Shown here piece by piece: positions 11,458 through 34,338 of a stretch of DNA of 64,000 nt. Source of the stretch: Spirochaetia bacterium (lineage in GTDB: Bacteria > Spirochaetota > Spirochaetia > SZUA-6 > Bin103); contig CBDBDQ010000005.1 in assembly GCA_965203905.1 (NCBI GenBank), forward strand, positions 4,096,001 through 4,160,000, written 5' to 3'. Position numbers and translations under genes: made by a program. The notes beneath the pieces are model-generated. The model was not told where the DNA came from. It made no database searches and was given only the letters and a program-made list of their open reading frames with translations. The first letter of the stretch is position 1, and every line of letters begins with the position of its first letter.

Positions 11458-12001
11458 GTGACTTACCGCGCGTACAAGGACCTGGTCAAGGTCGAGCGTG
11501 CCTTCCGCAGCATGAAGACGGTGGACTTGAAGGTGCGTCCGATCTATCACCGCAACGCAGATCGGGTACGGGCGCACGTGTTCCTGTGCATGCTGGCCTA
11601 CTACATGGAGTGGCACATGCGCCGGAAGCTGGCCCCGCTGCTGTTCGACGACCACGACCGCGCAGCTGCACAGCAGCAGCGCGCGTCGGTGGTGCAACCG
11701 GCGCAGCGGTCGCCGGCGGCGCGCGCCAAGGCGGCGCGCAAGCGCACCGCTGACGATCTGCCGGTACACAGTTTTCGCAGCCTGATGAGCGACTTGGGGA
11801 CGCTGGTGGTGAACGAGATGCAACTGGCCGAAGGCGGGGGTACATTCTCGTTGCCGACGCAGCCGACCCCGGTTCAGAGCCGCTGCTTCGAATTACTGGG
11901 TGCCGCCTCGGATGTAGTCACGGAAGGCACATCTCATCTTGTTCGTAACTGTTGTATCCGAAATGACTTACCAACGATCTACCTCTGGAACTTCGGGTTA
12001 G
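11458..12001 (+). mobile_element. IS1634-family remnant: transposase C-terminus plus probable right end
   Basis: 'YKDLVKVERAFRSMKTVDLKVRPIYHR...RVRAHVFLCMLAYY'; N-terminal majority missing; ends near GGAACTTCGGGTTAG. Confidence 0.75.
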
Positions 12002-12206
12002 CGGAAGGCAAGGGTGCCCGCCGTGAGGCGGGATCTGGAGGAAGCCGGAAGCAAAACGCTGGCCTGACGAACGGCGAGATAGCGCGAGCGGTGCGTCAAA
12101 CGTCACGGCGGAGAGGGAACAAGCCGACCCCAACGAGCAACGAATGATGGAGGAGGTAGTCGAGCGCGAGAACATGCGAGCCGCCTACCGGCAGGTGACG
12201 CGCAAC
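12002..12206 (+). mobile_element. group II intron remnant (5' end of RT/maturase ORF)
   Basis: ATG 12144 gives [21 protein letters not shown], matching the LtrA-type N-terminus, cut just before the KGxxGxDG motif. Confidence 0.6.
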
Positions 12207-12213
12207 ACTCACT

Positions 12214-12372
12214 TCACGAAGACGGCAGGAGGTGCGGCAGGTTCACGAATCTAATGGAACACCGCTTCGTCGTCTGCCACCACCGTCTTGGCGTGGAGGG
12301 CACCGTCGGGTCCGTCATTTGCGCCGGGCCGCAGGTCGTAGTACACCGTTGAACGCGGGTGTCCGGCCACGA
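12214..12372 (-). pseudogene. degenerate copy of the drmC 3' end
   Basis: 'VYYDLRPGANDGPDGALHAKTVVADDEAVF' then 'LLPSS*' versus drmC 'VFYDPRSVADDGPGGVLHAKAVVADDEAVF...LLPSS*'. Confidence 0.8.
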
Positions 12373-12377
12373 CACTC

Positions 12378-12590
12378 TCAGCGCTGGCGAAAGTCGGCTC
12401 GCCGCACCGTGAGCAGCGTGAACAGCGCCTCGCGTGCCGCGGAGGAGGCATCTCGAAGGCTCATCCGTGCAAGTCGGGCGCTGTCGCATGCTTGGACAAG
12501 GTCCCAGGTGGCGAACTCGACCCCGTGATCGTAATCGGCCGAATAACTAAGCCGTTCCGCATGCTGGAGCAATCCGTCGGGGTCAATCAT
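12378..12590 (-). pseudogene. HEPN-like gene with in-frame internal deletion (70 aa versus 182 aa)
   Basis: N-terminus MIDPDGLL and C-terminus ADYDH...TVRRADFRQ match 19098-19646; middle, including RRGISAAYY and RH, is absent. Confidence 0.85.
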
Positions 12591-12948
12591 CGCATGACGA
12601 TCTGGGCCGACCGGTTACGTTGACCACGAAGACGCCCCATTTGGCGACCTTGGTGCCGATCAGCCGCTTGCGCAGGTCAGTAGTGGCGTTGCGCGCCGCT
12701 TCGTAGGGGTAATCACTTACATCGAAGTCCTCGTCAAGATCGAGCACCACCGAAAACACGAAGATCAACCGATCCCTGCTGCCGTACCGGGTGGTCCATT
12801 CGGCGTCGTAGGCCGCAGAGCCGGGCGGTAGGCTCTCGACGAACTCCGTCCTTACCCGCTCGGCATCCTGCTTCGCCGCGTCCAGCGCCGCCTGGAACTC
12901 CGTGGCACTGAGTTCATCCTGCCACGCATACACGCTCGGCCAGCTCAT
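12583..12948 (-). CDS. uncharacterised 121-aa protein, copy C (putative HEPN antitoxin)
   Basis: Paralog of 19639-20007 and 20168-20551; stop overlaps HEPN start (ATGATTGA). Confidence 0.8.
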   Translation of the reverse strand: MSWPSVYAWQDELSATEFQAALDAAKQDAERVRTEFVESLPPGSAAYDAEWTTRYGSRDRLIFVFSVVLDLDEDFDVSDYPYEAARNATTDLRKRLIGTKVAKWGVFVVNVTGRPRSSCDD

Positions 12949-12955
12949 AACCCTC

Positions 12956-12984
12956 AGCCTACCGAGCTCCCTTGTCGCTCACAA
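12956..12984 (-). promoter_or_regulatory. sigma70-like promoter TTGTGA-17-TAGGCT, 7 nt before ATG of copy C
   Basis: Same -10 hexamer and spacing to ATG in all three copies. Confidence 0.5.
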
Positions 12985-13007
12985 GGTCAAATCAGATCCT
13001 CCGCGGA

Positions 13008-13787
13008 TCACGAAGAGGGCAGGAGCAGCAGCAGCCCCTGCTCGATCAGGGTCCGGAAGTGCAGCACCGTGGTCGCGGCCAATGTGCGGTCGCGCGCCAG
13101 GAGTCCCAGCTCGATGTTGCGGTCGAACGCCGCCTCGGTCAGGTTCGCGGAAGTGACGAACACGGCTTCGTCGTCCGCCACCACCGCCTTGGCGTGGAGC
13201 ACGCCGCCCGGTCCGTCGTCTGCGACCGAACGCGGGTCGTAGAACACCCGCGGACGGCTCTTGCCGGGCCACGCCTTGCCCCAGAAGCGATCCGCGAAGC
13301 GGCGCACCAGGGTATCCGCCGCGGTGGTGTCGCCGTGCCGACGTTCGATGTTGAGTAGCAGCGTGACCTTGAGCTGTGGATTCGCATCCAGCCGCCCGGC
13401 GAGTGTCGCGAACGCGCGCGGCCCATCGAAGAAGGCGTAGCTGCACACCCAGATCGAATGCCGTGCCGAGCCGATCAGCTCTTCGTACACCCGGCGCGTG
13501 TCGCGCGCGTGCAGCCCGACGACCTCCGGGCCGGTCCAGACGAAGTCGGGCGCAGGCGCCCGCTCCGCCGCACGCGCGAGACTGTTCAGCCAGATCACCC
13601 CCGCCTCCGGCGAAACGCCGATGCGCTGCCACTCGCGCAGCACCTGCAGGATCGCATCCTGATGCTCGCCGCCGACCGTCGAGCGCACCGCAACCGCCGA
13701 GTACGGCGGTACGACTTGACCTGAGTCCAGCGCGCTCACCAGTCTGCTGAGGACGTACGGCGGTAGCGCAAGCAGTGCGTCGATCAC
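13008..13787 (-). CDS. drmC: DISARM phospholipase D-like nuclease DrmC
   Basis: Single HKD motif 'LHAKAVVADD...TSANLT...NIELG'; 'VWTGP'; follows drmB. Confidence 0.9.
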   Translation of the reverse strand: MIDALLALPPYVLSRLVSALDSGQVVPPYSAVAVRSTVGGEHQDAILQVLREWQRIGVSPEAGVIWLNSLARAAERAPAPDFVWTGPEVVGLHARDTRRVYEELIGSARHSIWVCSYAFFDGPRAFATLAGRLDANPQLKVTLLLNIERRHGDTTAADTLVRRFADRFWGKAWPGKSRPRVFYDPRSVADDGPGGVLHAKAVVADDEAVFVTSANLTEAAFDRNIELGLLARDRTLAATTVLHFRTLIEQGLLLLLPSS

Positions 13788-13797
13788 AGGGCGGCGA

Positions 13798-15597
13798 TCA
13801 TGGGGCGCCGAAGAACGCGGCTTCCGGGGCGTACAGCGCCGGGGCCACCAGCGCGCGGTCCAGGTACTCGTTGCGCATCTCGCAGGAAGTCTCCGCGATC
13901 AGCGCGCAGCCGTGGCACGCCGCGCCGTGCAGCCAGCGTTCCTCCATGCTCTGCCCCGGCACGTGCTCGGCGCAGACCGGATCGTTGGAACACAGCGCCG
14001 CGGAATCCAGCGCGTAGCGCAGGTGGTCTTCTACCCGGCGCGCTTCCTGGACCAGCCCGCCCAGCGTGCCTTCGGCGTCGGGGCTCGCGGTGTACAGCAA
14101 CAAGGCGAAGCGCTTGCCTTCGTAGTCCGCGTAGATGCGTTCCCGTATCGACGCGGCGGGGTAGCCGCAGCGCATGGACAGGGACTGAATCAGAAGGTGG
14201 GACAGGGTGTGCAGCAGCACGTACGGCCCGCCTGGGAAGTGTCGCTCGCTGTTCCGCCGCCGCGCCCAGGCGACGTGGCCCTCGACAAGCTGGCCCAGTC
14301 GCGTCTGCACCGCCTCCCGGCCGAGCCAGTCCATTACGGCGTTCTCGCGAAGCTGCAGGACGATCCCCTCACCGCGGTTTTCCACTGCCGGGAACCACGT
14401 CGGTTCCAGCGCGATGGCGGCTCTCTCGACCTCGGCTTCGTACTCTCCGTCCACGTTCGGCATCTCGGATTCCAGCCGGGTGAACCCGGCAAGCGCCAGC
14501 ACTTCGCGGAGCCGGTGCACCTGGATGACTGACTCGATCCCGTCGCTGCTCGCCGAGCGGCGCCACACGGAGTCCGGCAGACGCCGAGCGTGGAAGTCCG
14601 GGTGTACGGGCACGTCGTCTCCGAAGCCCTCGGGGACCGCGAGCAGCGCATCGAGCTCTGCCGACTTGATCGGCCGCTCTGCCCCACCGCCGCCCGCACG
14701 CCTTGCAGCGATCGCCTTCAACACCTCGTCGTCGGAAAACGCCGCCAGGCGCCCCGCTACGCCGGGGAATCGCTTGACGACATCGAGACTCGGCGCATCG
14801 GTGACGATCTGCAGTTGTTGCCAGAGCTCTTCGACCGCCTCATCGACCTCGGTGCCGCGGTCCGGCAGCGAAAGAACGCTGAGCACCTGCGGGAACCATG
14901 CGTTGGATGCGGTGCGGATCAGCAGCCGGCTGGGCTGGTCGCAGGGCTCGTTCGCGTGGCGTCCCAGCCACGGTCTGGCGCCGCTGCAGGTGCCGAGCGG
15001 GAACTTGGCCAGGTCCATCGCCTCGTGCATGCGGCGGGACTTGCCACACTCGCAGCGCACGATCTGTTCCGCCAGGTCGCCGGTGGTGCCGCGTTCGTCC
15101 AGCCTGAGCTGCCGGCGGCACTGGTCGTCCGGCCCGTGGACGAACCGATGCCAGTCGATGTCGTCCACGTGGCCCCTGGAGCAGGCACGGACGAAGCGGG
15201 TGGCCACCACTGGTCTCTTGTCGAACTTCCCCCGATCGAGCGCGGTCCGCCGCACCATGCGTCGGGAACGCGTGCCGGTCTGTCCGGTCGAGCCGGGGTT
15301 GGACTCCTGCACCACGAACCACTCGGGGAACCGCCACGCCCCGATGCCGCGTTGGCGGTCCTGCCAGTGCTCGGGCTCCGGCGGTGGCGCGTACAGCCTG
15401 GGACCCTGCACGCCGGTCATGGAGGTCAGCTTGGACGCCAGGCGCGGCTCCTCGATCGGTTCCAGGTTGGTCTCGGCGCCCCAGGTGTCGAGGCCACCCA
15501 CGATGGCGGATTCGTCGGGCAGATCGATCAGCGCTCCCGGCCCGAACGTGGTGATGACCTGGCTGCGCCGCAACTGGCCATGTGCCTTGCCGTTCAT
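13798..15597 (-). CDS. drmB: DISARM DUF1998-domain protein DrmB
   Basis: 'RRSQVITTFGPGALIDLP', 'LLHTLSHLLI', 'CGYPAASIRERIY', 'CSNDPVC', 'GAACHGC...ETSCE'. Confidence 0.92.
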   Translation of the reverse strand: MNGKAHGQLRRSQVITTFGPGALIDLPDESAIVGGLDTWGAETNLEPIEEPRLASKLTSMTGVQGPRLYAPPPEPEHWQDRQRGIGAWRFPEWFVVQESNPGSTGQTGTRSRRMVRRTALDRGKFDKRPVVATRFVRACSRGHVDDIDWHRFVHGPDDQCRRQLRLDERGTTGDLAEQIVRCECGKSRRMHEAMDLAKFPLGTCSGARPWLGRHANEPCDQPSRLLIRTASNAWFPQVLSVLSLPDRGTEVDEAVEELWQQLQIVTDAPSLDVVKRFPGVAGRLAAFSDDEVLKAIAARRAGGGGAERPIKSAELDALLAVPEGFGDDVPVHPDFHARRLPDSVWRRSASSDGIESVIQVHRLREVLALAGFTRLESEMPNVDGEYEAEVERAAIALEPTWFPAVENRGEGIVLQLRENAVMDWLGREAVQTRLGQLVEGHVAWARRRNSERHFPGGPYVLLHTLSHLLIQSLSMRCGYPAASIRERIYADYEGKRFALLLYTASPDAEGTLGGLVQEARRVEDHLRYALDSAALCSNDPVCAEHVPGQSMEERWLHGAACHGCALIAETSCEMRNEYLDRALVAPALYAPEAAFFGAP

Positions 15598-18500
15598 GCG
15601 CCGCTCCTGCTGAGTCGGCTGGAGAGGTCCTGCAGGAACAGGTTCACCTGGGGCTCGACGTCGCGCAGTGACCGGTTGGCGCGGAACTTCTTGTGATGGG
15701 CCGAGTCGAAGTCGGTGTCGAGCATCTCGCGGAGGAGCGGCTTCCTGGTCCGGAGCTCATGCCGCTGGTATTGCATGGACACCCCGTCAGCGCGGTAGTC
15801 GTCGAGGATCGCCCGCCACGAGTCGAGCAGGTCACCGATCCGGTTCTGAATGCTGCGCAGCCGTTCTTCGCGTTCGGCCTCGTCCTGCATGGGCTGCTCG
15901 TTGATCCGGGCGCGAAAGACTTCGAGCAACAGCCGTTCGAGCTCCACCCGCTCTGCCTCGATCGCCTCCACCCCGGCCGGCGGCGTCATCGGTGATCGTG
16001 CGTGACGGGCTAGGGTTACCAGCGCCCCCGCGAAGCCGCGGTCCAGGGCGCGTGCGGCGAACGGGGTCACGCTGGCCACCTCCACCGAGCGGTAGAACGT
16101 CTCGTGGTAGTGCCGGAAGCGCTCGTAGTGCGACCGGTCCCGCGGCCGATGCACGTTGTAGAGCATCACCACCAGCCCGGGACGGTTGTCGTCGCGTCCG
16201 ACCCGGCTGGTGGCCTGGATGTACTCGGAGTTGGTCTTCGGCTGTCCGTACACCAGCATCAGCCCGAGGCGCTGGATGTCCAGGCCCACCGAGATCATGT
16301 TGGTCGCGATGGCGCAGTCCACCCGCTGCTTGCGGTCGCGGAAGGTCGTCTGCAGGCGCCGCCGGGCCTCGGCCACCCGATCGGTGCTCACCCGCGAGGT
16401 CAGCTCGACCACGTCGGAGAAGCTGGTGCGGTCGCGAAACAGTCCCCGCGCCTCGCCGAGCCGCTTGCGGTCGCCGTAGCGCTTCAGCGTGTTCTGGACC
16501 TCTTCTTCCAGGATCCTCCGGGCGCCGCCGAGCTCGCGCAGGCTGTTGAAGTAGCCAAGCACGGTCATGTAGGGATCGGCAGGATTGTCCCGGTTACGGG
16601 GACCTCCGGCGTCGCGCCAGGCCCGTTCCGCCGCGCCCATCAGCGCCAGCAATACCCGCCGCATCGCCTCCTTCGGGTTGCGTCCCTGGGACGCGATGCC
16701 GACGTACTGCCGAGCATTTCGCTCCGCTGCGGGCATGGTGCGCGCGAAGAACGAATCGTCACGAGACGGTCCCGGCGGCGGGAAGATGTGCGTCGCCGGG
16801 CGCCCGAAGAGGCCCTGAACCTGTTCCCGAGCGTGGCGCACCGTCGCCGTCGATGCGACGATCTTGGGCTTCACCCTCCTGCCGTCGATCTCCCTCGCGC
16901 ACAGCGCTTCGATGGCCGCCTCGTAGAGGCCGGCCATGGTGCCCAGGGGTCCGGAGATCAGGTGCAGCTCGTCCTGGATGATGAGATCCGGCGGCGGCAG
17001 CGGCTGGCTCAGGCGGTTGCCCCGGCGCGGCTCGGCGGCACCGTAGAACCCGCTCTCATCGTGGCGGTCGGCGCCCCCGAGGAGCGCCCCGGACTCGCCG
17101 ACCCAGGGCAACGAGGCGAACTTGTCGACGGTGGCGACCAGAAAGGCCGGCAGCCGCCGGTACAGCGGCTCGTCCACGGCGACTATGGGCAGTGGCGTGT
17201 CGCCCGAGAAGTCGCACTCCCAACTGGCGCAGGCGATGCGCAACTCGGTCGGGTGATCGGAATCCGGCAGCAGCGTGAAGGATTCCGGGGTGAAGTCTTC
17301 CCCACACCAGGGGCAACTCTCCAGGGGAATGGGGGCCGGCCTGCCCTGCGGGTTGTTCTTGTACTGGCTGACCTTGCTGCGCGCCGAGTCCGAACGGTTG
17401 TCGCCCCGTTCGCCGAGTCGGTTGGGCGTGCCCGCCTTGCCCACCCACAAGCCGATCTCGAACGGCCAGGTGCCATACCGGGCGGTGTCCTTGCGCCGCT
17501 CCAGCTCAAGCGCGCACACCAGCCCTGCCGCGCGGCCGAGCTGATCCAGCGTCAGCAGCCGCAACGTGTAGCGCATGACGACGCTCACGCCGGCACCGGC
17601 CCGGCCGCCGTCCTCCGGATGGCGCAGCCGCCGCAACACCATGGCAAACGCCGCAAGCCCGAGATACGCCTCGGTCTTGCCACCGCCGGTGGGGAAGAAG
17701 AGGAGGTCCACGAACTCGCGCTCGGGATTCGCCGGGTCCGCGAGGCCGGACAGGTTCAGCAACAGGAAGGCGATCTGGAAGGCACGCCATCGGGGCGGGT
17801 CGGTCACCCCTTCACGGGCCAGCCGCCGAGAGAGCGCGGCCGCGACGGCGCGGTTCGCGACGCAGAAGGCATCTAGCGCGTCCGAATCCTGCGCGAGGAC
17901 GCGGATGCCCCGCTCCATGCGGTTGGCGGCGGAACGGGCGTGGAACACCAGCTCCTCGGCCGTCTCGCGGCGTTCTCCTGTCAGGTCGGTGAGTCGGGCG
18001 TCCTGCTGGTCGATCCAGGCGCGGTAACCGGTGACCAGCGGTGTCAACGCACGTTCCGCGACACCGCCATCGGAGAGTTCGCCGAGCGCCGCCATGGCAA
18101 GCTCGACACCCGGCACCTCCACGGTCTCGGTCGTCTCCACCTCGGCCGTGGGATTCCAGGTGGTGCGCAGCAGCCGGCAGGCGCCCTCTACGAGGAGCCA
18201 GTCCGCGGCCACGCCGTGACCGGCCGCGTACTCAGGCGTGTCGGCGTAATGGAGATCTGCGATACGTTCGTCGGGATCATCACCCGACACCCCACGCGGA
18301 TCGGGACGCGGCACGAACGGAATCGCGCTCCGTACCTCCAGCTCCGCTTGGAAAGCGAACGCCGCGTCGCGAACGAGGTCCGCCACGGCGGACCGCCCGT
18401 TCACCAGAAACAGCGACACGGATCGCGTCCCCGGCGGAATCCGGTCCGCGAACGTCGCAACCCTCACGGGGCGGGCGACCGCATGGAGGATCAGCCCTTG

Positions 18501-19082
18501 AGAACCCGGCACCGGCTCCTGGTACGGATCATCCGCTCCGCCAAGCGTCACCCGGACCTCCTCTTCACGGGCCGTACGCTGCCACCGCGTCGACGCCTGT
18601 CCCTCGCTCCTGACAACGGCCCCGTCGGCCGCGCCTTTCGTTTCGTTGGATGACTCGTCGCTGGCGGGCGCATCATCGTTCCGTCCGTCGTCCCGGGATG
18701 CGTCCTCGACGTAGCGGTAGTCACCCCACCGGACGGTCACATCCACCGCATCCACGCCCTCTGCAACCAGGAAGCTCAAGCCCATCGACGACGGAAAGAA
18801 GCTCTTCTTGGCAGATCGCCGGTCTTCCGTGGAATCATCGCCGAGCCCGCTCTCACCGGCGACCTCCGGATCGAAGTCCTCGTCCGCGTCGGCGTCCGCG
18901 CGCTGTTCCGCAGGTGCCTCCCGCGGGACCAGAAACCCGGTGAGATACCAGTTGGACGGCCGCACCCACCCCGGCAAGCGCTCATCGGCGAGCGGATGCC
19001 CGGCACCGGGACCAATAAGGTCCAACTCCAGCGCCTCCCGAAGCCGGGAACGTACCTCAGCGGGTTGGATCACCTGCCCCAT
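15594..19082 (-). CDS. drmA: DISARM helicase DrmA
   Basis: 'FFPTGGGKTEAY', 'MRYTLRLLT', 'IIQDELHL', 'STAT', 'ATNMISVGLD', 'YIQATSRVGR', 'RDRSHYE'. Confidence 0.93.
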   Translation of the reverse strand: MGQVIQPAEVRSRLREALELDLIGPGAGHPLADERLPGWVRPSNWYLTGFLVPREAPAEQRADADADEDFDPEVAGESGLGDDSTEDRRSAKKSFFPSSMGLSFLVAEGVDAVDVTVRWGDYRYVEDASRDDGRNDDAPASDESSNETKGAADGAVVRSEGQASTRWQRTAREEEVRVTLGGADDPYQEPVPGSQGLILHAVARPVRVATFADRIPPGTRSVSLFLVNGRSAVADLVRDAAFAFQAELEVRSAIPFVPRPDPRGVSGDDPDERIADLHYADTPEYAAGHGVAADWLLVEGACRLLRTTWNPTAEVETTETVEVPGVELAMAALGELSDGGVAERALTPLVTGYRAWIDQQDARLTDLTGERRETAEELVFHARSAANRMERGIRVLAQDSDALDAFCVANRAVAAALSRRLAREGVTDPPRWRAFQIAFLLLNLSGLADPANPEREFVDLLFFPTGGGKTEAYLGLAAFAMVLRRLRHPEDGGRAGAGVSVVMRYTLRLLTLDQLGRAAGLVCALELERRKDTARYGTWPFEIGLWVGKAGTPNRLGERGDNRSDSARSKVSQYKNNPQGRPAPIPLESCPWCGEDFTPESFTLLPDSDHPTELRIACASWECDFSGDTPLPIVAVDEPLYRRLPAFLVATVDKFASLPWVGESGALLGGADRHDESGFYGAAEPRRGNRLSQPLPPPDLIIQDELHLISGPLGTMAGLYEAAIEALCAREIDGRRVKPKIVASTATVRHAREQVQGLFGRPATHIFPPPGPSRDDSFFARTMPAAERNARQYVGIASQGRNPKEAMRRVLLALMGAAERAWRDAGGPRNRDNPADPYMTVLGYFNSLRELGGARRILEEEVQNTLKRYGDRKRLGEARGLFRDRTSFSDVVELTSRVSTDRVAEARRRLQTTFRDRKQRVDCAIATNMISVGLDIQRLGLMLVYGQPKTNSEYIQATSRVGRDDNRPGLVVMLYNVHRPRDRSHYERFRHYHETFYRSVEVASVTPFAARALDRGFAGALVTLARHARSPMTPPAGVEAIEAERVELERLLLEVFRARINEQPMQDEAEREERLRSIQNRIGDLLDSWRAILDDYRADGVSMQYQRHELRTRKPLLREMLDTDFDSAHHKKFRANRSLRDVEPQVNLFLQDLSSRLSRSGA

Positions 19083-19097
19083 GTCGGCTCTGGCCTA

Positions 19098-19646
19098 TCA
19101 GTGCTGGCGAAAGTCGGCCCGCCGCACCGTAAGAAGCGTGAACAGCGCCTCCCGAGCGGCGCTCGAAGCATCACGCAGCCGCCTGCGCGCGTTCCGGCCG
19201 TTCCTGCACGCCTGGACCAGATGCCAATGGGCGAACCTCTCATCGTGGTCGTAGTCGGCCGCATGCCGCCGCTCCTGCATGTCGTTGAACAACCGCAGGC
19301 TGTCAACCAGAGCAGCATCCTTCGCCGTCACGTCGAGCAGCGGACCAAGTCTCTCGAGCTGCCCAGGCAGCGCAGCATCCGGAGAGTGTTTCAGGACTTT
19401 GGCCCGGTCGACGACGTACTCAGCGAGCTGAGAGATCTCGCCATGCGACCAAGAGCGACGGATATCGTTCTGAATCTCGAGAGGACATGAACCGACCAGA
19501 TGACTCGCCGCGTGCTTGGTCAGGTCATGAAAGACCGCATAGTAGGCAGCGCTGATGCCCCGCCTGAGATCCGTATCCGTTGGGTGGCCTCTTCCGGTGT
19601 CCGCGAGCTGCTCCGCGTGCCTGAGGAGACCGTCGGGATCAATCAT
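19098..19646 (-). CDS. HEPN-domain protein (UPF0332-like), putative RNase toxin
   Basis: 'LRRGISAAYYAVFH' and 'QERRHAADY'; start at ATG 19646 coupled to upstream stop. Confidence 0.75.
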   Translation of the reverse strand: MIDPDGLLRHAEQLADTGRGHPTDTDLRRGISAAYYAVFHDLTKHAASHLVGSCPLEIQNDIRRSWSHGEISQLAEYVVDRAKVLKHSPDAALPGQLERLGPLLDVTAKDAALVDSLRLFNDMQERRHAADYDHDERFAHWHLVQACRNGRNARRRLRDASSAAREALFTLLTVRRADFRQH

Positions 19647-20007
19647 CGGCGGGCGGTCTGGGACGACCAGCCACCGTGACCACGAAGACCCCCCACTCGT
19701 CGACCTTGGTGCCAACCAGCCGTCTGCGAAGGTCAGCGGTAGCGTTGTCCGCCGCTTCGCCGGGGTAGTCGCGGATGTCGAAGTTATCAGCGTCAAGATC
19801 AAGCACCACCGAGAACACGAAGATCTTTCGATTCTTGCTGCCGTACCGGGTGGTCCACTCCGCGTCGTAGGCGGGAGAGTCGGGGCGCAGGCTCGCGACG
19901 AACTCCTTCCTGATCCGCTCGGCATCCTGCTTCGCCGCGTCTAGCGCCGCCTGGAACTCGGTGGCACTGAGCTCATCCTGCCACGCATACACGCTGGGCC
20001 AACTCAT
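19639..20007 (-). CDS. uncharacterised 122-aa protein, copy B (putative HEPN antitoxin)
   Basis: 8-nt overlap with HEPN gene; acidic; paralogous to copies A and C. Confidence 0.8.
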   Translation of the reverse strand: MSWPSVYAWQDELSATEFQAALDAAKQDAERIRKEFVASLRPDSPAYDAEWTTRYGSKNRKIFVFSVVLDLDADNFDIRDYPGEAADNATADLRRRLVGTKVDEWGVFVVTVAGRPRPPADD

Positions 20008-20014
20008 GTTCCTC

Positions 20015-20043
20015 AGCCTACCGAGCTACGCCGTCCCTCTCAA
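20015..20043 (-). promoter_or_regulatory. sigma70-like promoter TTGAGA-17-TAGGCT, 7 nt before ATG of copy B
   Basis: Hexamers and spacing; overlapped by inverted repeat CCGAGCT(20021)..AGCTCGG(20049). Confidence 0.5.
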
Positions 20044-20044
20044 G

Positions 20045-20160
20045 CTCGGATGGGCACATGTGTTCTTCTTGGCTGGTCGTCCGATCCTCGGTGGATTCGT
20101 CCTCAAGCCCGCCGTACCAGTGACACGCTCGGAGTCGTCGCCCGCTCGACGCTCCCCGAG
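20045..20160 (-). pseudogene. degenerate fragment of the drmA 5' region
   Basis: 'GGLEDESTEDR' followed by shifted GCCAAGAAG versus drmA 'SGLGDDSTEDRRSAKK' (about 18790-18890). Confidence 0.55.
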
Positions 20161-20167
20161 GGTCCCC

Positions 20168-20551
20168 TCAGGGCGAGACGCTCAGTGGTTCGGATGACCG
20201 TCTGGGGCAACCGCTCACGGTGACCACGAAGACACCCCATTCAGCGACCTTGGTGCCGAGAAGCCGTTTGCGCAGGTCAGCCTTGGCGTAGTTCACCGCT
20301 TCGTAGGGGTAGTCGCGGATATCGAAGTCGTCGCCGTCAAGATCGAGCACCACCGAGAACTCGAAGATCAATCGGTCCTTGCTGCCGTACCGGGTGGTCC
20401 ACTTCGCGTCGTAGGCGGGAGAGTCGGGCGGCAGGCTCGCGACGAACTCCTTCCTAACCCGCTCGGCATCCTGTTTCGCCGCGTCCAGCGCCGCCTGGAA
20501 CTCGGTGACACTGAGCTCATCCTGCCACGCATACACACCCGGCCAGCTCAT
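20168..20551 (-). CDS. uncharacterised 127-aa protein, copy A (orphan, no HEPN partner)
   Basis: Paralog of copies B and C; homology ends near 20195 and the C-terminus differs. Confidence 0.8.
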   Translation of the reverse strand: MSWPGVYAWQDELSVTEFQAALDAAKQDAERVRKEFVASLPPDSPAYDAKWTTRYGSKDRLIFEFSVVLDLDGDDFDIRDYPYEAVNYAKADLRKRLLGTKVAEWGVFVVTVSGCPRRSSEPLSVSP

Positions 20552-20558
20552 GTTCCTC

Positions 20559-20588
20559 AGCCTATCGGAGCATCCTGCCCCGGCTCAA
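20559..20588 (-). promoter_or_regulatory. sigma70-like promoter TTGAGC-18-TAGGCT, 7 nt before ATG of copy A
   Basis: Same -10 and distance to ATG as copies B and C. Confidence 0.45.
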
Positions 20589-21289: not shown

Positions 21290-22428
21290 GTAGCTAATCG
21301 ATACGGAGAAGCTCGCCAGCGGTGAACGCGCCGTCCTGCAGTACCGAGCTACATCGTCCATCGGCCCTGTCCTCTAGGCACGGTCGAGGGAGACTACCGG
21401 TAAGAGCGAATCGACGGGAATCGACTCCCGATCCAGGAGATCGGCGCTGTGCGTGGTGACGACAACCTGCGTCCGTTCGCTCGCCTCAAGGAGCGCATCC
21501 ACCAGGACCCCGGCAGCTTCAGGATGAAGTGCGGTCTCGGGTTCCTCGACGCCGAGCAGGCGAGCGGCGCTAGCGGCGCCGGGACTCTGGAACAGCACCA
21601 GGAGGACGCCCAGAACGTGCAGCACGCCATCCGACATGCTATGCGCAAAGAACTCCGCGCGCGTCATCGCGTCCCCGTTGATGGAATTCGAGAGCATGTC
21701 GGTTGCCGAAGACCCGAGAATCCACACCAATTATCTCCGGCGCGAAAGCACTGAGTTAGTCCGTAATGCGGTCGACGCTCGCGGAACCCCGCGACTTCAG
21801 TTTTGCCAGCACGCCGGCGGCGTTGCTGCCGTCCCGTGCCAAGACAGGATCACCTGTCGGCGTATGAAAGCCGCCAAGCGCACGCGCGCCGATGTGGTAG
21901 CATGCCATGCTCTCCAGCGCACGATAGACAGGGCGAAACTCTGACACGTTGGAGACGCGTATCAGATAAAGCGATCCGTCGTCGGGCAGCGGCGGATGTG
22001 CAAGCGAGGTGGCCACACAGCGCCCATGCTCGATACGGAAGAACCGTTCCGCATCGTCACCGGTGGCACGGACCCGGCACTCCTCCCGACGCAGGACGTA
22101 GCCGCCGCCTCGTTTTGCCACGTCAAATGCATACCAGCCAATAACTTCCGTGAGCCGGAAGCCGAGACGGACACCGAAGTGACTCTGTGGCGTCGCTGTC
22201 CGATGGCAGACCTCCACGAAGCCGCCGCGCTCGCTCATTGCGTCGCCGAGATTTAAACCGCAGCGCCTGTGAGGCGAAGCGCACGGCATCGAGGAAGTTG
22301 CTCTTGCCGGAACCATTCGGGCCAACCAGAGTCGTCAATGGAGGCAACTCTACGTTGCACGCCGCGATACTCTTGTAGTTGTGCAACGCGACCCGGGTGA
22401 TCAGTCGACGATCAGCGAATGTGTTCAT
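21290..22428 (-). pseudogene. AAA_21/ABC-type ATPase, frameshifted and internally damaged
   Basis: Walker A GPNGSGKSN, 'DGSN', signature MSDG, Walker B 'GVEEPETALHP', 'TTHS' split over three ORFs. Confidence 0.8.
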
Positions 22429-22439
22429 GTCCGTTACCG

Positions 22440-22895
22440 TCAAACTGTCTCCAGCGGTGTGCCAATCGTGCCAGATTCGCCGTTCAGCATACGGAATAGA
22501 CGGCTTCCCGGGATAATGTGGGCGTAGAACTGTGGCGGATGGAAGGACTGTACTACCCGCCGAATGCCACCTATCGGAACAGGTGCAGGTAGTTTCTTTA
22601 CACACGTTAGAACCAAGGCCGACACGCAACCACGACCGCCTACGTAATCCTCGAAGCATGACCGATCGATACGCATCTGTTCACGAAAACGCTTCCATAT
22701 CTCTGGCGGGCTGCCGTGAATCACAGAACTCACATCCGCTTGAGCGACTATTTTCCCGACCGGAAGCGTGAAGTAGAGCCAGATCGTCGTCCCTGAATCG
22801 ATCCTGACGATCCGGTTTCTCAGTTCTACGGTCTTATCACCGGATAGAACCAGTTCTCCGTATGCCGGTCTGAGCGATATTATTGCTTGTCCCAT
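22440..22895 (-). CDS. ASCH-domain protein
   Basis: 'IISLRPAYGELVLSGDKTVELR', 'LYFTLPVGKIV', 'PPQFY'. Confidence 0.88.
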   Translation of the reverse strand: MGQAIISLRPAYGELVLSGDKTVELRNRIVRIDSGTTIWLYFTLPVGKIVAQADVSSVIHGSPPEIWKRFREQMRIDRSCFEDYVGGRGCVSALVLTCVKKLPAPVPIGGIRRVVQSFHPPQFYAHIIPGSRLFRMLNGESGTIGTPLETV

Positions 22896-25063
22896 CAGAT
22901 ATCGCTTCGGTATCCCTGTTCAACAATCAGACCAAGTGAATGGTGTGATATCCTCTCGGCGGTCACGAGATTGGCGTCGCTGACACATCCCATTTTCTTG
23001 AGTATTTTGAAGTCGATGTATTGCGGAAACGGTAGCATACTATCGAACGTGAAGGCAGTGATCTCGTCACCATCGTTCGTGAGTCGCTGAATCTCATTCT
23101 TCGTCAGCACGCCCTGTCTGCTCAAATTCATCACCGCCTGGGTCGTGGTCAGGGTATCCGAAAACGTCACCCTCGTCAGCGCAACCGCCTGGCTGCGTGG
23201 ACCGCTTACGTAGAAGACTACGAGCGTCCCTCTTGGCAAGAGCGTATGCCTGCGAGCCCTGAGGAAGTAGGTTCGTTCAAGCCGGAAGGCCGCGTCGTGG
23301 TGTGACAGTAGCAATCCCTGGCTCCGAGTCTCGGGAAGAAGCTCGTCCGCGTACACGCCCTTGATCGGAACAATAACCGCTCCTCGATGCGGAGCAAGGA
23401 GTACTCCAGGAGCGATGAAAGTCTCGAAGTCGAACAACGACATAGTCCATGATTCGTTCTCTTTGTCGCGACCCAATACTATGCCGGTATTAATCAGTTC
23501 TTGATGACTTGGCAGATCGGCGGGAAGATGAAGACCTGTCACATCGAGGAAGTCGCGCGCGATACTTTGCCAGTTTTCCGGAGTGACGACTCCCGTAATC
23601 GAAACACGGCTCAGCTCAATGTGGAGGTTGTGATCGTTGTTTCGATCGGGATAAAATCCGCGTCGGAGTGCAGTCTCCCTTGTCCTAATCTGGTTCCGTG
23701 GGATCTTCAAATGGAACCGAAAGAGCCGACACTCATCTCGTCCGGTTGCGGGTGCCGCGAGAATGTGGTCAATCGTACGGTCAGCATCAACATGGTCCTC
23801 ATCAACGATCAAGTGGAGGATCGTGTGTGTGCGATCCCGGAGTGCCCATGACCATAGCCCTGTGCCGGTGATCTGGTCCGACGACCGAACCACGACGCTT
23901 CGACGGTAGGAATACCCGGGTGTTGGGCCAAGCCATGAGGCGAGCTCCGATTCGTCAAGGTGGCCGTGTGAGCGCAGAAACCTACCGATACTATCGCGAT
24001 TATGATCGCAAATTTCCGAAACCTGTATCTCGCGTGTCTCTGCTGTGATGGACACAGGGACATCAATTGGGCTGTCGTCCTTCTGAAAAGAGTCGACAAC
24101 GTCCGTCGGAGATACCACATGAAGCCCGTACACTTCGTGAAGCTCTCGAGAATTCCGTAGGATTCCGGAGTCCCTTGTAATAAACCCGTAAGCCCGATGA
24201 TGAATCGATGATGCTAAGTGAATATGATCCGACTTGTCATTCGTCGTCCACCCCTGTGGGCCAGGAGGGTTTGAGGTCAACAGACTCTGCACCCTCGTAA
24301 CGACCTGTCGAAGGAGATCGTTGTCTACGGTCGGAAGACGCGGAAGGCTCCTGGCAAATGTTAGCACCGGGTCGTTGCGTTGGTCCTGAGACGTCCGTTC
24401 CAACTCTGCGACGAATTCAGGAGTCACCACGAGACGAATCTCGTGGTTCAAGGCGAACGACAGTATTTGAGCGGCCTGGCCTGAGTCACGGTACCTAACA
24501 GCATCGAAAAACACGTTCAGATCGATCACATAGGTAGGCGTCGTCAATAGTGGTCTTGCCGGATCAATCTGAATCGAGTTCTGTGCACCACCAGACGTGC
24601 CGAATAGCGACGGCACCTCCAGGTCGAGTGAATACAGATTGAGCATCGTCCCGGATCTCAAGTCGGGGACCTGTCTGATGACTCTAAACCCTGAGTGCTG
24701 CCAGAATATGTTGGCATTCAGTTTCGGCAGTACGCGAGCGGTTATGTTCAGGTACGATAGCTTTGTCGCGTACAATATCAGTTCTTCGATAATCGTTCGA
24801 GCGACACCAGATGTACGATGATCGGGGTGCACACAGATGTGAAATATCCTCAAATGTGGATGCCTTCCGCCGAACAGCAGATATCCTCGGAACTCTCGTG
24901 AGAACATGTCGATCGCTACCCAGAGATTGCCCTTCATGGCTGCTTCCTGGTATGCGCTTCTCGGAAGAAATCCGAGCTGAGGTCGATGGGCATCCGCGAG
25001 ATTGCGAACCTGGTCGATGTATGACATGACTCGCTCGACGTCTTTGAGAACAGATTCAGCCAC
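22895..25063 (-). CDS. GNAT acetyltransferase-PIN fusion with C-terminal EVE/PUA-like domain
   Basis: GNAT 'ICVHPDHRTSGVA...ANIFWQHSGF'; PIN 'YVIDLNV...DHIHLA...FITRD'; C-terminal 'GTLVVFYVS'; GTG 25063 overlaps drmMI stop (alternative ATG 25027). Confidence 0.75.
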   Translation of the reverse strand: MAESVLKDVERVMSYIDQVRNLADAHRPQLGFLPRSAYQEAAMKGNLWVAIDMFSREFRGYLLFGGRHPHLRIFHICVHPDHRTSGVARTIIEELILYATKLSYLNITARVLPKLNANIFWQHSGFRVIRQVPDLRSGTMLNLYSLDLEVPSLFGTSGGAQNSIQIDPARPLLTTPTYVIDLNVFFDAVRYRDSGQAAQILSFALNHEIRLVVTPEFVAELERTSQDQRNDPVLTFARSLPRLPTVDNDLLRQVVTRVQSLLTSNPPGPQGWTTNDKSDHIHLASSIHHRAYGFITRDSGILRNSRELHEVYGLHVVSPTDVVDSFQKDDSPIDVPVSITAETREIQVSEICDHNRDSIGRFLRSHGHLDESELASWLGPTPGYSYRRSVVVRSSDQITGTGLWSWALRDRTHTILHLIVDEDHVDADRTIDHILAAPATGRDECRLFRFHLKIPRNQIRTRETALRRGFYPDRNNDHNLHIELSRVSITGVVTPENWQSIARDFLDVTGLHLPADLPSHQELINTGIVLGRDKENESWTMSLFDFETFIAPGVLLAPHRGAVIVPIKGVYADELLPETRSQGLLLSHHDAAFRLERTYFLRARRHTLLPRGTLVVFYVSGPRSQAVALTRVTFSDTLTTTQAVMNLSRQGVLTKNEIQRLTNDGDEITAFTFDSMLPFPQYIDFKILKKMGCVSDANLVTAERISHHSLGLIVEQGYRSDI

Positions 25064-28000
25064 TTTGTGCACCAGAGATGGGTGGCGATGTCCCGGCCAT
25101 CGTGGGGGACCTACGTGTCGATCTCCGGTTCGGTAGAGGTTTGGAGGATCGCATGACGGCTCGATGCGACACGGCGGCGTGAGCTTCTGCCGTGGCGCGC
25201 TCGGCGTTGAGGGCGAGCAGGCGGGCGAGGACTTCGTCACGGACAGTATCAGGCCAGCGGTAGCGGTAGGGCTTCTTCTTGCGGCCCCAGGTGGCCTCGT
25301 CGATTTCGTAGTCGAGGAAGAAGTCGCAGTCGGTGGCTATGTCGGTCCAGCCGTATGCGTCGAGGACGGCTCGGTCCATGGCCGCATGGAGTTCCCGCAG
25401 TTTGGCAATCCTCGTGCCTGTATCGTAGAGGTCGTGGAAGCGGTTGTAGGTCTTGGTCATGCCCTCGTCGTGATCGACCATGAGTGCGGCGCGGTAGTCG
25501 TAGTAAGTCTGCCCCGCGGCTTCAAGGTATGCGTCGGTATCCCGTGCTTCCGGGAACGGGAACGTCTCGAAGCAGTCGGATGGTGTGTAGCGGAGGTCAT
25601 CCTTCATCGAGGATCCGAAGAAGCGTGCCCAAATCTCGTGTACGCGGGACTGTAGAGAACAGAATGAGGAGTATGAATCTATTCGAAAAACGTTATGTGG
25701 CATCGCATATACTATACCCACTGGTAGGAAAGTGAACTGCAGGTGACTCCCTACATTTCCATGAAACAACACCCGTTTGAGTCCCTTGATGGCTGAATAT
25801 AACTCGGGCCTAGGACCGAAGAACTGCCACCACTTTGTTCTCGCTATAATATGATTTTTTGTTTCTCGATCCGGTCTTACACGATCTTCGATCATCGCTA
25901 TTAACGTGGGCCATCGACTACGGCATTCAGCCTCGGTTCGCTCGCCGAAGTTGATTACGTAGCGATGGTGCGCGTGAGTCGGGCTTGTGTTCACCTCCTC
26001 GCCACCGATGTAGGGGAAAATGACTTCTCGGTTGCGTGGATCGGATTCGATGAGCCGCTGCATTTCGGCGATTGAGCACGCAACGCCTCTTCGGTCGGTG
26101 TCATCGAAGGTGAAGCCCATACCGAGGACGTAACTTCCGACGAAGCTCTTGCCGGCGTTGGCTGCCAGCCGTGCCGGGTCCGCGTGGCCGCCCTGGTGGA
26201 ACAGAAACGCGGTGATATTGTCTACGCTCGCACCGTCTAGCACCTTGCGCAGGCGAAACGCCCCCTTGCCGATGTGGAGGACACTTACGATGACAGCGGC
26301 TTCGCCGGGCCACTGGACCCGCTTGGTAGCGCGGTAGATCTCGCCTTCATGCTCGCAGATCCAGCGTAGACCGCTGGAGCGGGTGTCGCCCTGGGCGATG
26401 GTGTTGGTGGCGATCAGGCCGAGTGTACCGCCCTCTCGTAGCAGAGTGAATGCGCGCCGGTAGAAGTGCGCCACGAGGTCGGCATTGCCGTGGCTCTCTT
26501 CATGCAGATCTTTGAGCCAGCTCGGATAGCCTCCAACGTTGCCGGCCGCGATGCTGTTCTTACCTGCGAATGGCGGGTTGCCGACGAAGCCGTGGAAGCC
26601 GGGGTTGTCGCGCTCGAAAACCTCGGGGAACTCAATTTCCCAGTGGAAAGGAGCGAACGGCAGTTCCGCGTGGCGGCGCCCCTCCATCTCGACAGCGTGA
26701 CGCCACGACTCCCCGGTGAGGATGGCCTCCTGGTACGCAGAGCGCCGTGACTCGCGCTCCTTTGGCTTGGCGCCCTCAAAGAATGCCGCGAGCACGAGAT
26801 CGCCAAAAAGGCGTACCTCGGAGACCGCATCCTGAGCTTCGCGCCAGAGGTTCTGCAAGCGGCGTTCGTCGACGGTGTCGTCGGCTTCGCGAATCTGGTG
26901 CCGCAGCTCCGATGCCGCTTGCACGGCCTCGCGGACGCCGAAGCCAGCCAGGATCGGCTGCCCTCCCTTCCAGTTCAGCGCCTCGATCTGGCGCCGGGTC
27001 AGGCCGACGAGCGAGTCGCCGTGACGGAACGCATGGTCGACGAAGGTGAGCGGATGGTCGCGCGCCAGCGTGCTCAGCCAGAGAGAGACCTTGGCAAGGT
27101 CGACGGCCATGGGGTTGCGGTCGATGCCGTAGAGGCACTTTTGCGCGATCAAGCGCCGAGCGTAGATCACCTCGTCTTCGTCAGCCGGGATCATGGGCAT
27201 CGCGCCATGCGCGCCCCACGCGTCGATCAGAGCGTCGGCAAGCTGGCGACATGTCTCGACCAGGAATGCCCCAGAGCCCATGGCCGGGTCGCAGATCTTG
27301 AGGTCCAGGATCTGCTCAGGGGTCGGCGTCCGGCCGTCGTCGCCTCGCAGCCGATCGAGGAGGGGTGCGAGGGTATGGCGAACGATCGGCTCGGTGAGTT
27401 CGCGCGGCGTGTAGTGGGAGCCCGAGCGCCGCCGCTCCGCGTTGGGCTGCAGCACCAGTGCGCCGGGCGGGGCGATGTCCGGCGTCGCGTCCCGGTCCAG
27501 CAGCCGGTCCAGCGCCACGTGCAGGTCGTCCACCCTGTCCGCGGCGCGGAGCCCTTTCGCGACCTTGTCCGTTATTGTGCGGTCCGCGCGCTGTTGTAGC
27601 CACCTCGCGCGGCGGGCGTTCGGCTGAGCCAGCAGCGCGTCGAGATCGATCGTGTTCGGCGCTCCCAGCTTCTTGGCCGGCTTGATGGCGACCGAGCGGC
27701 CGGTGGCGGTCTCCAGGCGAAAGCCCATGATGGTCTCGTACACGGAGCCGATCTGCTCTACGTCGAGCGTGCGGTAGGAGATGCGCTCACCGTCGAGAAC
27801 GAGCAGCTTCTCCAGCACGCGGTAGATGACGCCGTCGGAGATGCGTGGCGCCACGACGCGCTCAATCGTCTGCCGGACACCGCCGCCGCGGCGGCCCTCG
27901 AGAAATCGGAAACGGTCCGGGTCGAACAGTGTGCCACGGCGTTCCGGCAGGTTGATGGCGCCCCCGGTGCGATGGGCGCGAGCCCCATCGTGAATGAGGC

Positions 28001-29072: not shown

Positions 29073-29552
29073 CTAGCAACCTGTTAAGCTGCCACAGAGA
29101 TTGTCACTACTTAGCAGCCTCTGGTGCGAGGAAGTAAACCGCCGTTGAAGATCACCTCGTGTCGTATACACTTTTCCGGCCGGCCCTGAAATGATGTCCG
29201 TATTCACAAAGTCGTTCGTCAGTTTTCCGTCATCGGTAAAGAGAAAACGAGCCCCGCTTGCCAATGCAAGGGCGAGTATGTGCCGGTCGTTTGACCTGAT
29301 CCGTCCGCCGAGTTGCTCCTCGACTTCCTTAATCATAGACAGCCTTATTATCCGAACTCTCCTACCGAGTCTGCGAGCCTCCAGGAACCATCTTTCGAAG
29401 TTCTTGTTGTGAGTCAGCTCTCTGATGTTCTTTCCGCCAACGACGAGTTCGCCCCGTCCGTCTTCCAACCATTGCCGAAATCTCCTGCCTGGCTCAGTCT
29501 GTTTCGGCCCCACTAACTGGTACACTACGTCGGCGTCGACGATGGCGCACAT
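29073..29552 (-). CDS. PIN-domain protein
   Basis: 'AIVDADV', 'SNDRHILALA', 'LFTDD' acidic tetrad pattern; TGATG overlap with upstream ATPase. Confidence 0.75.
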   Translation of the reverse strand: MCAIVDADVVYQLVGPKQTEPGRRFRQWLEDGRGELVVGGKNIRELTHNKNFERWFLEARRLGRRVRIIRLSMIKEVEEQLGGRIRSNDRHILALALASGARFLFTDDGKLTNDFVNTDIISGPAGKVYTTRGDLQRRFTSSHQRLLSSDNLCGSLTGC

Positions 29553-34192: not shown

Positions 34193-34338
34193 TGTATGCG
34201 GAAGCGGGGTGCGTGGGCAGAGACCGCAGAGGACGGCAGAGGTTGCCGGTAAACCGGACGCGCCACTATACTTTCGGGGCGCGGCGAACTCCTTCCGGAG
34301 CGACGCCGGCGCCGCCACCTGAGCATCCGATTCCCAGC

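Follow-up and report, generated by a model that had tools for sequence, protein, structure and literature searches.

A divergent HEPN-fold protein and a small acidic partner as a candidate toxin-antitoxin-like module beside DISARM genes

Why would a bacterium keep three intact copies of a small gene when the gene that follows it survives whole only once? The question arises in a stretch of 64,000 nucleotides from a Spirochaetia bacterium (contig CBDBDQ010000005.1, positions 4,096,001 to 4,160,000), here called the window. Three minus-strand copies of the small gene (A, B and C; coordinates are those of the window) lie there within a complete class 1 DISARM (defence island system associated with restriction-modification) locus (DrmD, DrmMI, DrmA, DrmB, DrmC), and one of them heads an intact pair with a gene for a 182-aa HEPN-fold protein. 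HEPN proteins are among the commonest predicted prokaryotic toxins, and the characterised small HEPN pairs are neutralised by a minimal nucleotidyltransferase (MNT) enzyme. A first-pass annotation, made from the sequence alone, had proposed a new toxin-antitoxin family in which the small protein would be a divergent MNT-like or a novel antitoxin. Here, we find that the two genes are consistently paired, that the HEPN gene decays more often than the small gene, and that the small gene is under purifying selection with or without its partner. With a probability of roughly 0.55, we read the 122-aa and 182-aa genes as an autonomous toxin-antitoxin-like module, in which a protein of HEPN-T type would be the harmful partner and the small acidic protein an antidote acting by binding.

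The three open reading frames (ORFs) of the first-pass annotation were recovered at the same coordinates (Table 1), with the shared N-terminus MSWP[SG]VYAWQDELS and no difference between B and C up to residue 31. Pairwise identities are 80% (A and B), 79% (A and C) and 80% (B and C), and the similarity is far above chance, as seen from direct repeat family D1 and from tblastn E-values no higher than 1e-59. The couplings described there held as well. B runs into the intact 182-aa ORF (junction ..GATGATTGA), which contains RRGISAAYYAVFH and RHAADYDH, and C overlaps a 70-aa remnant ORF in the same fashion. A is unpaired, with 160 nt between A and B and no HEPN gene or remnant 3' of A. BLASTP aligns residues 1-15 of the intact protein with the first 15 of the remnant, and residues 113-181 with remnant residues 1-69; with lengths of 182 and 70 aa, 112 residues have therefore been lost and the frame retained. 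Start, stop and frame are kept in all three small genes of the window.

Is the pairing a property of this window only? We mapped 24 loci by tblastn; they were selected for holding the small gene, and their genomes are close kin. A small-family ORF lies directly 5' of the HEPN gene in 14 of the 14 full-length HEPN genes, eight of them DISARM-linked, five stand-alone in the same bacterial family (one, in L047, N-terminally shorter) and one in a Propionibacteriales metagenome-assembled genome (MAG). The two ORFs overlap wherever start and stop could be read (window, L062 and L059). Linkage to HEPN thus extends beyond DISARM and into other phyla.

The two genes differ in how often they survive. 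In DISARM-linked loci, 22 of 29 small-gene detections are full-length, against 8 of 23 HEPN detections (Fisher p = 0.0046, the related genomes not being independent). The remaining HEPN detections comprise two in-frame short forms that lack residues 52-105, two frameshifted copies and 11 fragments with varying end points. Consequently, 14 of the 22 intact small genes stand without a full-length HEPN gene. Compared with their ten nearest copies, A, B and C have Nei-Gojobori dN/dS values (ratio of non-synonymous to synonymous divergence, omega) of 0.13-0.41, which are not near the value of 1 that would have spoken for idle copies. Medians are nearly the same for orphan-orphan (0.27; 66 pairs), orphan-paired (0.27; 160 pairs) and paired-paired comparisons (0.28; 88 pairs). 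Judged by these ratios, the small genes are under purifying selection, orphans as well as paired copies. A retained small gene, a decayed HEPN gene and purifying selection together make up the asymmetry expected of an antitoxin and its toxin.

Two other explanations can be weighed against these counts. The extra small genes might be neutral leftovers of a recent duplication, kept only as promoter carriers or for their shortness; the region does carry clear duplication and deletion scars, and the small gene is only two thirds as long as the HEPN gene. However, the window copies differ from their nearest relatives by dS 0.19-0.64 and so are not recent, their omega values show constraint, and every one of them has an intact start, stop and frame. 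Moreover, the nearest copy to A is L033_11623 in another genome of the genus (G005), which is likewise an orphan and likewise ends in ..SVSP. The two cluster at 93/87 in a tree that is otherwise poorly resolved, and they differ by dN 0.078 and dS 0.251 (omega 0.31), so that the A type is an orphan in both genomes; a similar 127-aa copy occurs in L057, a MAG that carries the label of a different phylum. We consider neutral persistence quite improbable. Least probable of all is a reversal of roles, with the small protein as the harmful effector and the HEPN-fold protein as its restraint: were the small protein the toxin, the 14 intact small genes that lack a full-length HEPN partner (A has no HEPN sequence of any kind) should kill or burden the cell, and the HEPN protein is the toxin in the characterised HEPN pairs described in the excerpts of PMC7641770 available to us. 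In favour of such a reversal, gene order is not decisive in toxin-antitoxin systems, and the small protein has no assigned function.

Two irregular small genes were also seen. On a short MAG contig (L057, 205-1113), an A-type gene and the next small gene are merged into one 302-aa ORF through loss of the first stop codon. Elsewhere in the window genome (L006 1474-2076, minus strand; G000:C5 near 4446990-4447232), a 200-aa ORF shares 54% identity with small-protein residues 10-91 in its C-terminal half, where the match breaks off; this is either a fused or a truncated small-gene copy, with no HEPN gene downstream.

What kind of protein is the partner? The 182-aa protein has no match in Pfam, NCBIfam or PADLOC. 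Its model, built from an alignment of 25 homologues, is of high quality (pLDDT 92.2, pTM 0.87), and four of the five best VIA-align rows are entries titled or described as HEPN. The best is 2hsb (AF0298; Z 11.1, root-mean-square deviation 2.9, 113 aligned residues); 1ufb (Z 9.1), 1wol (Z 8.8) and the sacsin HEPN domain 3o10 (Z 8.6) are further rows. Lower down come the HEPN toxins LsoA, HepT and RnlA, and also Csm6, AbiV and HepS. The same 2hsb is the top Foldseek row (prob 0.98, E 0.1) and a weak profile match (E 0.33). Against PF05168, below the gathering cut-off, the window protein gave no match and one of 25 members appeared at E 0.33; the near-misses were a paralogue from the same genome in L010 (18.3 bits, cut-off 22) and a relative in L065 (E 0.13). 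By its model, the protein has a HEPN fold, and we read it as a divergent relative of the HEPN-T clade (PF05168-like) outside Pfam membership.

The alignment of the HEPN family shows 14 invariant residues (R28, R29, S32, Y35, Y36, H40, T43, R63, R64, W66, H68, R81, D105 and R127) and a near-invariant stretch A130, D131, Y132, D133 and H134 (H134 at least 90% conserved), with H128 next to R127. The motif can be written as R-x4-Y-x-H or equally as R-x6-H, from R127 to H134. In the AF0298-type family, the motif histidine is often absent and a second conserved histidine N-terminal to the motif is used, according to the excerpts of Anantharaman et al. (PMC3710099) that we consulted; from the alignment, H40 could be this alternative histidine. 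An insert of about 55 residues (52-105) holds the invariant R63, R64, W66, H68 and R81. In two loci (L031 7550-7936 and L038 9248-9634), the HEPN gene ahead of drmA encodes a 128-aa short form that lacks residues 52-105 but keeps the frame. The two copies are nearly identical, and their sequence could reflect either a working minimal HEPN or a common recent deletion.

The window genome also encodes three more distant HEPN paralogues with RR.[IV]S..YYA.F and R..ADY (L009 1076-1983, L010 1148-1986 and L011 1125-1938, all in G000:C5). Immediately before each of them, adjoining or overlapping it, is an ORF of 97-137 aa. The ORFs upstream of these paralogues, and that upstream of the L065 relative, gave hhalign probabilities of 0.2-0.5% against the small family, and no relationship was seen. 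The arrangement may be a sign that the HEPN-T clade is wider and that its small partners vary.

Is the small protein, then, a highly diverged MNT that would neutralise the HEPN protein by AMPylating the tyrosine of RHAADY, as in type VII HepT/MntA-like systems? Such a reading could call on the linear GS-x12-DLD of the window copies (G56, S57 ... D70, L71, D72), on a HEPN partner that falls structurally into the nucleotidyltransferase-associated HEPN-T clade (PMC3710099, in the part consulted), on the near-invariant Tyr132 close to R127, and on a gene order, with the small gene upstream and overlapping, that is the order of MNT-HEPN pairs. The defining motif of MNTs is GSX10DXD (Yao et al. 2020, PMC7641770, likewise seen in excerpts). 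However, PF01909 matched 0 of 25 members of the small family even at E <= 1, compared with 18 PF01909 matches elsewhere in the window genome. Eleven genuine MNTs from that genome align with an invariant GS-x9-11-SDxD (G, S, D and D), and the small family scored against them in hhalign with a probability of 1.0% (E 0.052) over 29 columns that cover helix 1 only. In distant members of the family, S57, D70 and D72 all vary (e.g. GG..EIA), among them the Propionibacteriales member L062, which still overlaps a HEPN gene of 59% identity.

The AlphaFold2 model of B (pLDDT 84.4, pTM 0.76) has an alpha-beta-beta-alpha-beta topology with a helix at 15-39, strands at 46-55 and 61-70, a second helix at 83-97 and a strand at 108-115. 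Reading this secondary-structure string, GS and DLD would sit at opposite ends of the 10-residue strand 61-70, and not side by side as a nucleotidyltransferase site needs. Foldseek with the model gave 0 matches at E <= 0.001 against the PDB and 0 against viral predicted structures. A wide VIA-align search found nothing above Z 6.8, with no MNT structure among the matches listed. Its best rows (Z 6-6.8) are generic alpha-beta-beta-alpha-beta domains such as the C-terminal domains of MamB/CzrB and the FliF ring motifs; the head domain of CCA-adding enzyme (Z 5.4) and Pol beta (Z 5.2) do occur, tied with many unrelated folds. We therefore rule out the small protein as an MNT on the missing PF01909 match, the hhalign result and the unconserved GS..DLD, and the divergent-MNT reading of the first-pass annotation falls with it; neutralisation by a diverged MNT is very improbable. 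Since the small protein has no MNT features, there is no enzyme here for tyrosine AMPylation.

The same annotation had not recognised the family of the small protein, and our searches bear this out. A, B and C match nothing in Pfam, NCBIfam or PADLOC, a PDB profile search with the family found nothing below E 0.14, and an ESM Atlas look-up of B returned no usable match. DUF6894 came up for one distant member (18.1 bits, cut-off 24.1) and was set aside as sub-threshold and isolated. The small proteins are acidic (pI 4.6-4.7). Co-folding of the HEPN and small families gave a median of 0.75, against 0.71 for a control in which chain 1 was swapped for an unrelated protein, and so did not discriminate.

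Each of the three small genes in the window, orphan or paired, is preceded by a promoter-like element that ends at its ATG (Table 1). The pattern TTGnnn-N16-19-TAnnnT-N6-8 lies directly 5' of the start codon in 24 of 26 copies and its -10 part alone in all 26, whereas in the same loci the pattern occurs at 40 of 20417 ATG/GTG positions (0.2%) and the -10 part alone at 0.9%. A scan with the consensus promoter found no site before the small genes, TAGGCT matching TATAAT at only three of six positions, and Rfam placed no RNA family inside the pair. This conservation suggests that every copy, even an orphan one, has kept a promoter and gives a leaderless transcript. As only 15 nt separate the HEPN stop from drmA, a distance that agrees with the first-pass annotation, this promoter may drive drmABC as well.

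How would such a module have come to its present state? We propose that the downstream, divergent HEPN-T protein is the likely harmful component, probably an RNase or an RNA-binding toxin; it carries the invariant R28, R29, H40, R63, R64, H68 and R127 and the near-invariant ADYDH. The upstream acidic alpha-beta-beta-alpha-beta protein would be its antidote, most likely through stoichiometric binding as in type II systems and not through nucleotidylation. The pair would have a promoter of its own and probably give a leaderless mRNA, and where it stands before drmA it would form the first part of the drmABC transcription unit. Whole units of the pair and drmABC would have undergone tandem duplication or recombination, followed by erosion. 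The cell would tolerate deletions of the HEPN gene but not those that take out the small gene first, and intact small genes would therefore accumulate as orphans such as A and C.

Several points weigh against this reading. Neither Pfam nor NCBIfam places a helix-turn-helix, ribbon-helix-helix or AbrB family in the small protein, which is a single domain without a DNA-binding part, unlike most type II antitoxins. The small gene is a smaller target (366 vs 549 nt), which explains part of the decay asymmetry, if not all of it; the choice of loci by their small gene and the kinship of their genomes bear on the same counts. Pairwise dN/dS mixes the time before and after orphaning, and any benefit of the orphans themselves is putative. 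As to the HEPN protein, the histidine of R-x6-H is T or P in the more distant paralogues of the window genome, and catalysis is not assured; in the excerpts consulted, the canonical Rx4-6H, with a polar residue after R, is often altered in the HEPN-T clade (PMC3710099), and no active RX4H motif was found in class II PF05168 partners (Yao et al., PMC7641770).

The surroundings of the three copies tell how they arose. In the order of transcription, the locus reads DrmD, an ATPase, DrmMI, PDC-M11A/B, a HEC-01A-like gene, A, B with its HEPN gene, DrmA, DrmB, DrmC, and finally C with the deleted HEPN gene. Past that deleted gene lies the remnant of a second drmC (repeat D3), 82% identical in DNA to 13158-13248 (tblastn E 2.5e-8). 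Two further pieces occur just outside the window (G000:C5:4093938-4094499), one a small gene without its 5' part, the other small-gene residues 1-60 fused to the C-terminal part of a third drmC. Because of the drmC remnant and this fusion, C can be taken as the head of an eroded second unit of small gene, HEPN gene and drmABC. This agrees with the G006 copy that is 91% identical to C and heads an intact pair immediately 5' of drmA. Weaker evidence for tandem units comes from L031 and L032, in which short drmA-like fragments (E 5e-12 and 1e-6) come after the second pair. By their sequence, the extra copies are remains of decayed tandem units of the pair and drmABC. The idea of orphan immunity genes put forward in the first-pass annotation is therefore upheld in so far as small genes stay intact where the putative toxin has decayed, but the locus is no purpose-built immunity array.

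Table 1. Features of the window in the order of transcription of the DISARM locus; DISARM genes were called with NCBIfam profiles (NF numbers) and PADLOC.
Feature	Coordinates	Strand	Remarks
DrmD	30911-34318		
AAA_15/NsnB-like ATPase	29552-30898	-	between drmD and drmMI
DrmMI	25056-29069		
PDC-M11A (GNAT + PIN, 781 aa)	22895-25240	-	defence cargo between drmMI and drmA
PDC-M11B (ASCH-like)	22440-22895	-	defence cargo between drmMI and drmA
HEC-01A-like ATPase in two ORFs (189 + 118 aa)	21374-22325	-	profile positions 58-221 and 253-346
Promoter-like TTGAGC-N18-TAGGCT-N7	20552-20588	-	ends at ATG of A
Small gene copy A	20168-20551	-	127 aa; C-terminal tail ..SVSP; orphan
Promoter-like TTGAGA-N17-TAGGCT-N7	20008-20043	-	ends at ATG of B
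Small gene copy B	19639-20007	-	122 aa; pI 4.7; first gene of intact pair
Intact HEPN-fold gene	19098-19646	-	182 aa; 8-nt overlap with B; stop 15 nt before drmA start at 19082
drmA (DISARM helicase)	15594-19082	-	NF038325 1149.8 bits, cut-off 950; PADLOC DrmA
drmB	13798-15597	-	NF038324 560 bits; PADLOC DrmB
drmC (PLD nuclease)	13008-13787	-	NF038319 179.8 bits; PADLOC DrmC
Promoter-like TTGTGA-N17-TAGGCT-N7	12949-12984	-	ends at ATG of C
Small gene copy C	12583-12948	-	121 aa; intact; heads decayed second unit
HEPN remnant	12378-12590	-	70 aa; in-frame loss of 112 internal residues
Second drmC remnant (HKD region, residues 175-210)	12257-12364	-	directly 3' of HEPN remnant
IS1634-type transposase fragment	11458-12147		beyond drmC remnant

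The split HEC-01A-like ATPase is probably a broken gene, and the same two pieces recur in several related loci. An Rfam match to group-II-D1D4-3 (12017-12109, plus strand; 46.3 bits, gathering score 32) overlaps the 3' end of the IS1634-like ORF; a piece of a group II intron may thus border the eroded DISARM unit.

Is the pair a component of DISARM or a guest? A drmA of at least 74% identity is present in 16 of 24 genomes of the bacterial family, and in 12 of these 16 the pair or a remnant adjoins drmABC, with the small gene before drmA in 10 and the pair after drmC in 6. The remaining four have a STAND-like NTPase, a ParA-like gene or HEC-01A in the slot ahead of drmA; G010 likewise has other genes upstream of drmA. 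In the same bacterial family, L041 and L044-L047 carry stand-alone pairs with no mapped DISARM gene within 9 kb, and L043 has a broken copy. Among the stand-alone contexts scanned were an IS3 transposase (L044), an integrase with a TrwC relaxase (L065, the 33%-identity relative), PIN_12 with a Pycsar-type TIR protein (L062) and ParD (L059). In PADLOC, no Drm model matches the pair. The pair is not an obligate part of DISARM, because it is absent from 4 of 16 orthologous loci and has stand-alone copies; judged from gene neighbourhoods, it is mobile cargo of a variable slot and not a core component. The DISARM link suggested by the first-pass annotation is thus physical and frequent without being obligate. 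In two loci (L030 15123-15221 and L040 9095-9196), the HEPN gene of the pair that follows drmC ends at an identical point (..LRRGISA, at about residue 34), with unrelated sequence beyond; going by these sequences, the common cut may mark a boundary of recombination, or of an island, that the two loci share.

The small family is rare: clustering at 90% gives 184 proteins, and clustering at 50% gives 45 representatives among 1.84 billion proteins. It occurs in 14 of 23 sampled genomes of the window's own bacterial family, in 0 of 37 sampled genomes from other families of the order and in 0 of 400 in a phylum sample. The HEPN family has 167 matches, some of them in MAGs filed as Chloroflexota, Binatia, Propionibacteriales and, at 33% identity, Solirubrobacterales. 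A small-family ORF stands directly upstream of the HEPN gene in the first three; in the Solirubrobacterales relative (L065), the upstream gene is an unrelated 111-aa ORF. The Binatia MAG (L059) carries the pair with a C-terminally altered HEPN gene. L057, filed as Chloroflexota, holds a drmA fragment 86% identical to that of the window over 577 residues and small genes of 80-90% identity. Close relatives in this high-GC lineage of 4-8 Mb are filed as Spirochaetia, and the taxonomic labels of the L054-L064 records disagree.

This distribution bears on the main rival of a toxin-antitoxin-like module, namely that the two genes have a non-toxic, accessory or regulatory role in the defence locus, for example as an inactive HEPN-T binder of nucleic acids or nucleotides and a small adaptor for sensing or tuning DISARM or other island genes, and that decay reflects dispensability. 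Dispensability predicts equal decay of both genes, which is at odds with 22 of 29 against 8 of 23 and with a small gene that is never missing beside a full-length HEPN gene. Stand-alone pairs far from DISARM genes and on mobile elements, and the four orthologous drmABC loci without a pair, are also difficult to reconcile with an accessory of this locus, and the many invariant arginines and histidines of the HEPN protein argue for an active site. In its favour, the classical active site is often absent in HEPN-T members (PMC7641770 and PMC3710099) and PF05168-type HEPN genes cluster with restriction-modification operons (PMC3710099), as far as the excerpts go; the pair, 15 nt before drmA, may share its transcript; and many HEPN copies are broken without visible consequence. 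On balance, we regard an accessory role as unlikely, though the strongest competitor. A bolder version of the toxin-antitoxin reading is doubtful too: the pair would represent an undescribed type of HEPN toxin-antitoxin system, with a new family in the place of the MNT; standing at the head of the drmABC operon with a leaderless promoter, it would addict the cell to the DISARM core or serve as an abortive back-up, and the orphans would provide anti-addiction immunity that permits turnover of DISARM cassettes.

If the toxin-antitoxin-like module is borne out, it would offer a second, non-enzymatic way of restraining a HEPN-T protein and a function for the small family. The locus also clearly documents the duplication, recombination and erosion of toxin-antitoxin-like cargo and DISARM core cassettes in nature, with the putative antidote outliving the toxin, and so bears on the turnover of defence islands and on the persistence of orphan antitoxins. 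In literature listings on DISARM accessory genes, HEPN toxins and orphan antitoxins, we found no description of this pair, which is no proof of its being unpublished; PMC3710099 lists HEPN families in its additional files, and this one could be among them.

How does the pair compare with known systems? It adjoins drmABC inside a complete class 1 DISARM locus (drmD, drmMI, drmA, drmB, drmC) in most of the related genomes, but unlike the DISARM components it matches no Drm model, is dispensed with at some orthologous loci and also occurs without DISARM. Type II toxin-antitoxin systems can have orphan antitoxins (the anti-addiction concept). With these systems the pair shares two small, co-oriented and overlapping genes that are conserved as a pair across lineages, a patchy and mobile distribution, and a full-length HEPN gene that is never found without the small gene (0/14) while the small gene is often alone; it differs in a small protein without a recognisable DNA-binding domain or known antitoxin fold. 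The pair also resembles the HEPN/MNT modules, especially those of class II, which combine a PF05168 HEPN-T protein with a PF01909 MNT (Yao et al. 2020, PMC7641770, in the excerpts consulted). Here, too, a small upstream gene overlaps a HEPN-fold gene, the nearest solved structures of the 182-aa protein are AF0298, TT1696 and ST0689, a conserved arginine is followed by a tyrosine (R127-x4-Y132), and the contexts are those of defence and mobile elements. Unlike in class II, however, the partner is no MNT, the HEPN protein carries its insert and scores below the PF05168 cut-off, and its motif is R-x4-Y-x-H instead of R-x4-H-x-Y; with a non-MNT partner, neutralisation is therefore expected by binding and not by AMPylation. 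No named family was recovered for either protein, and the pair is best filed as a putative HEPN toxin-antitoxin pair with a non-MNT partner.

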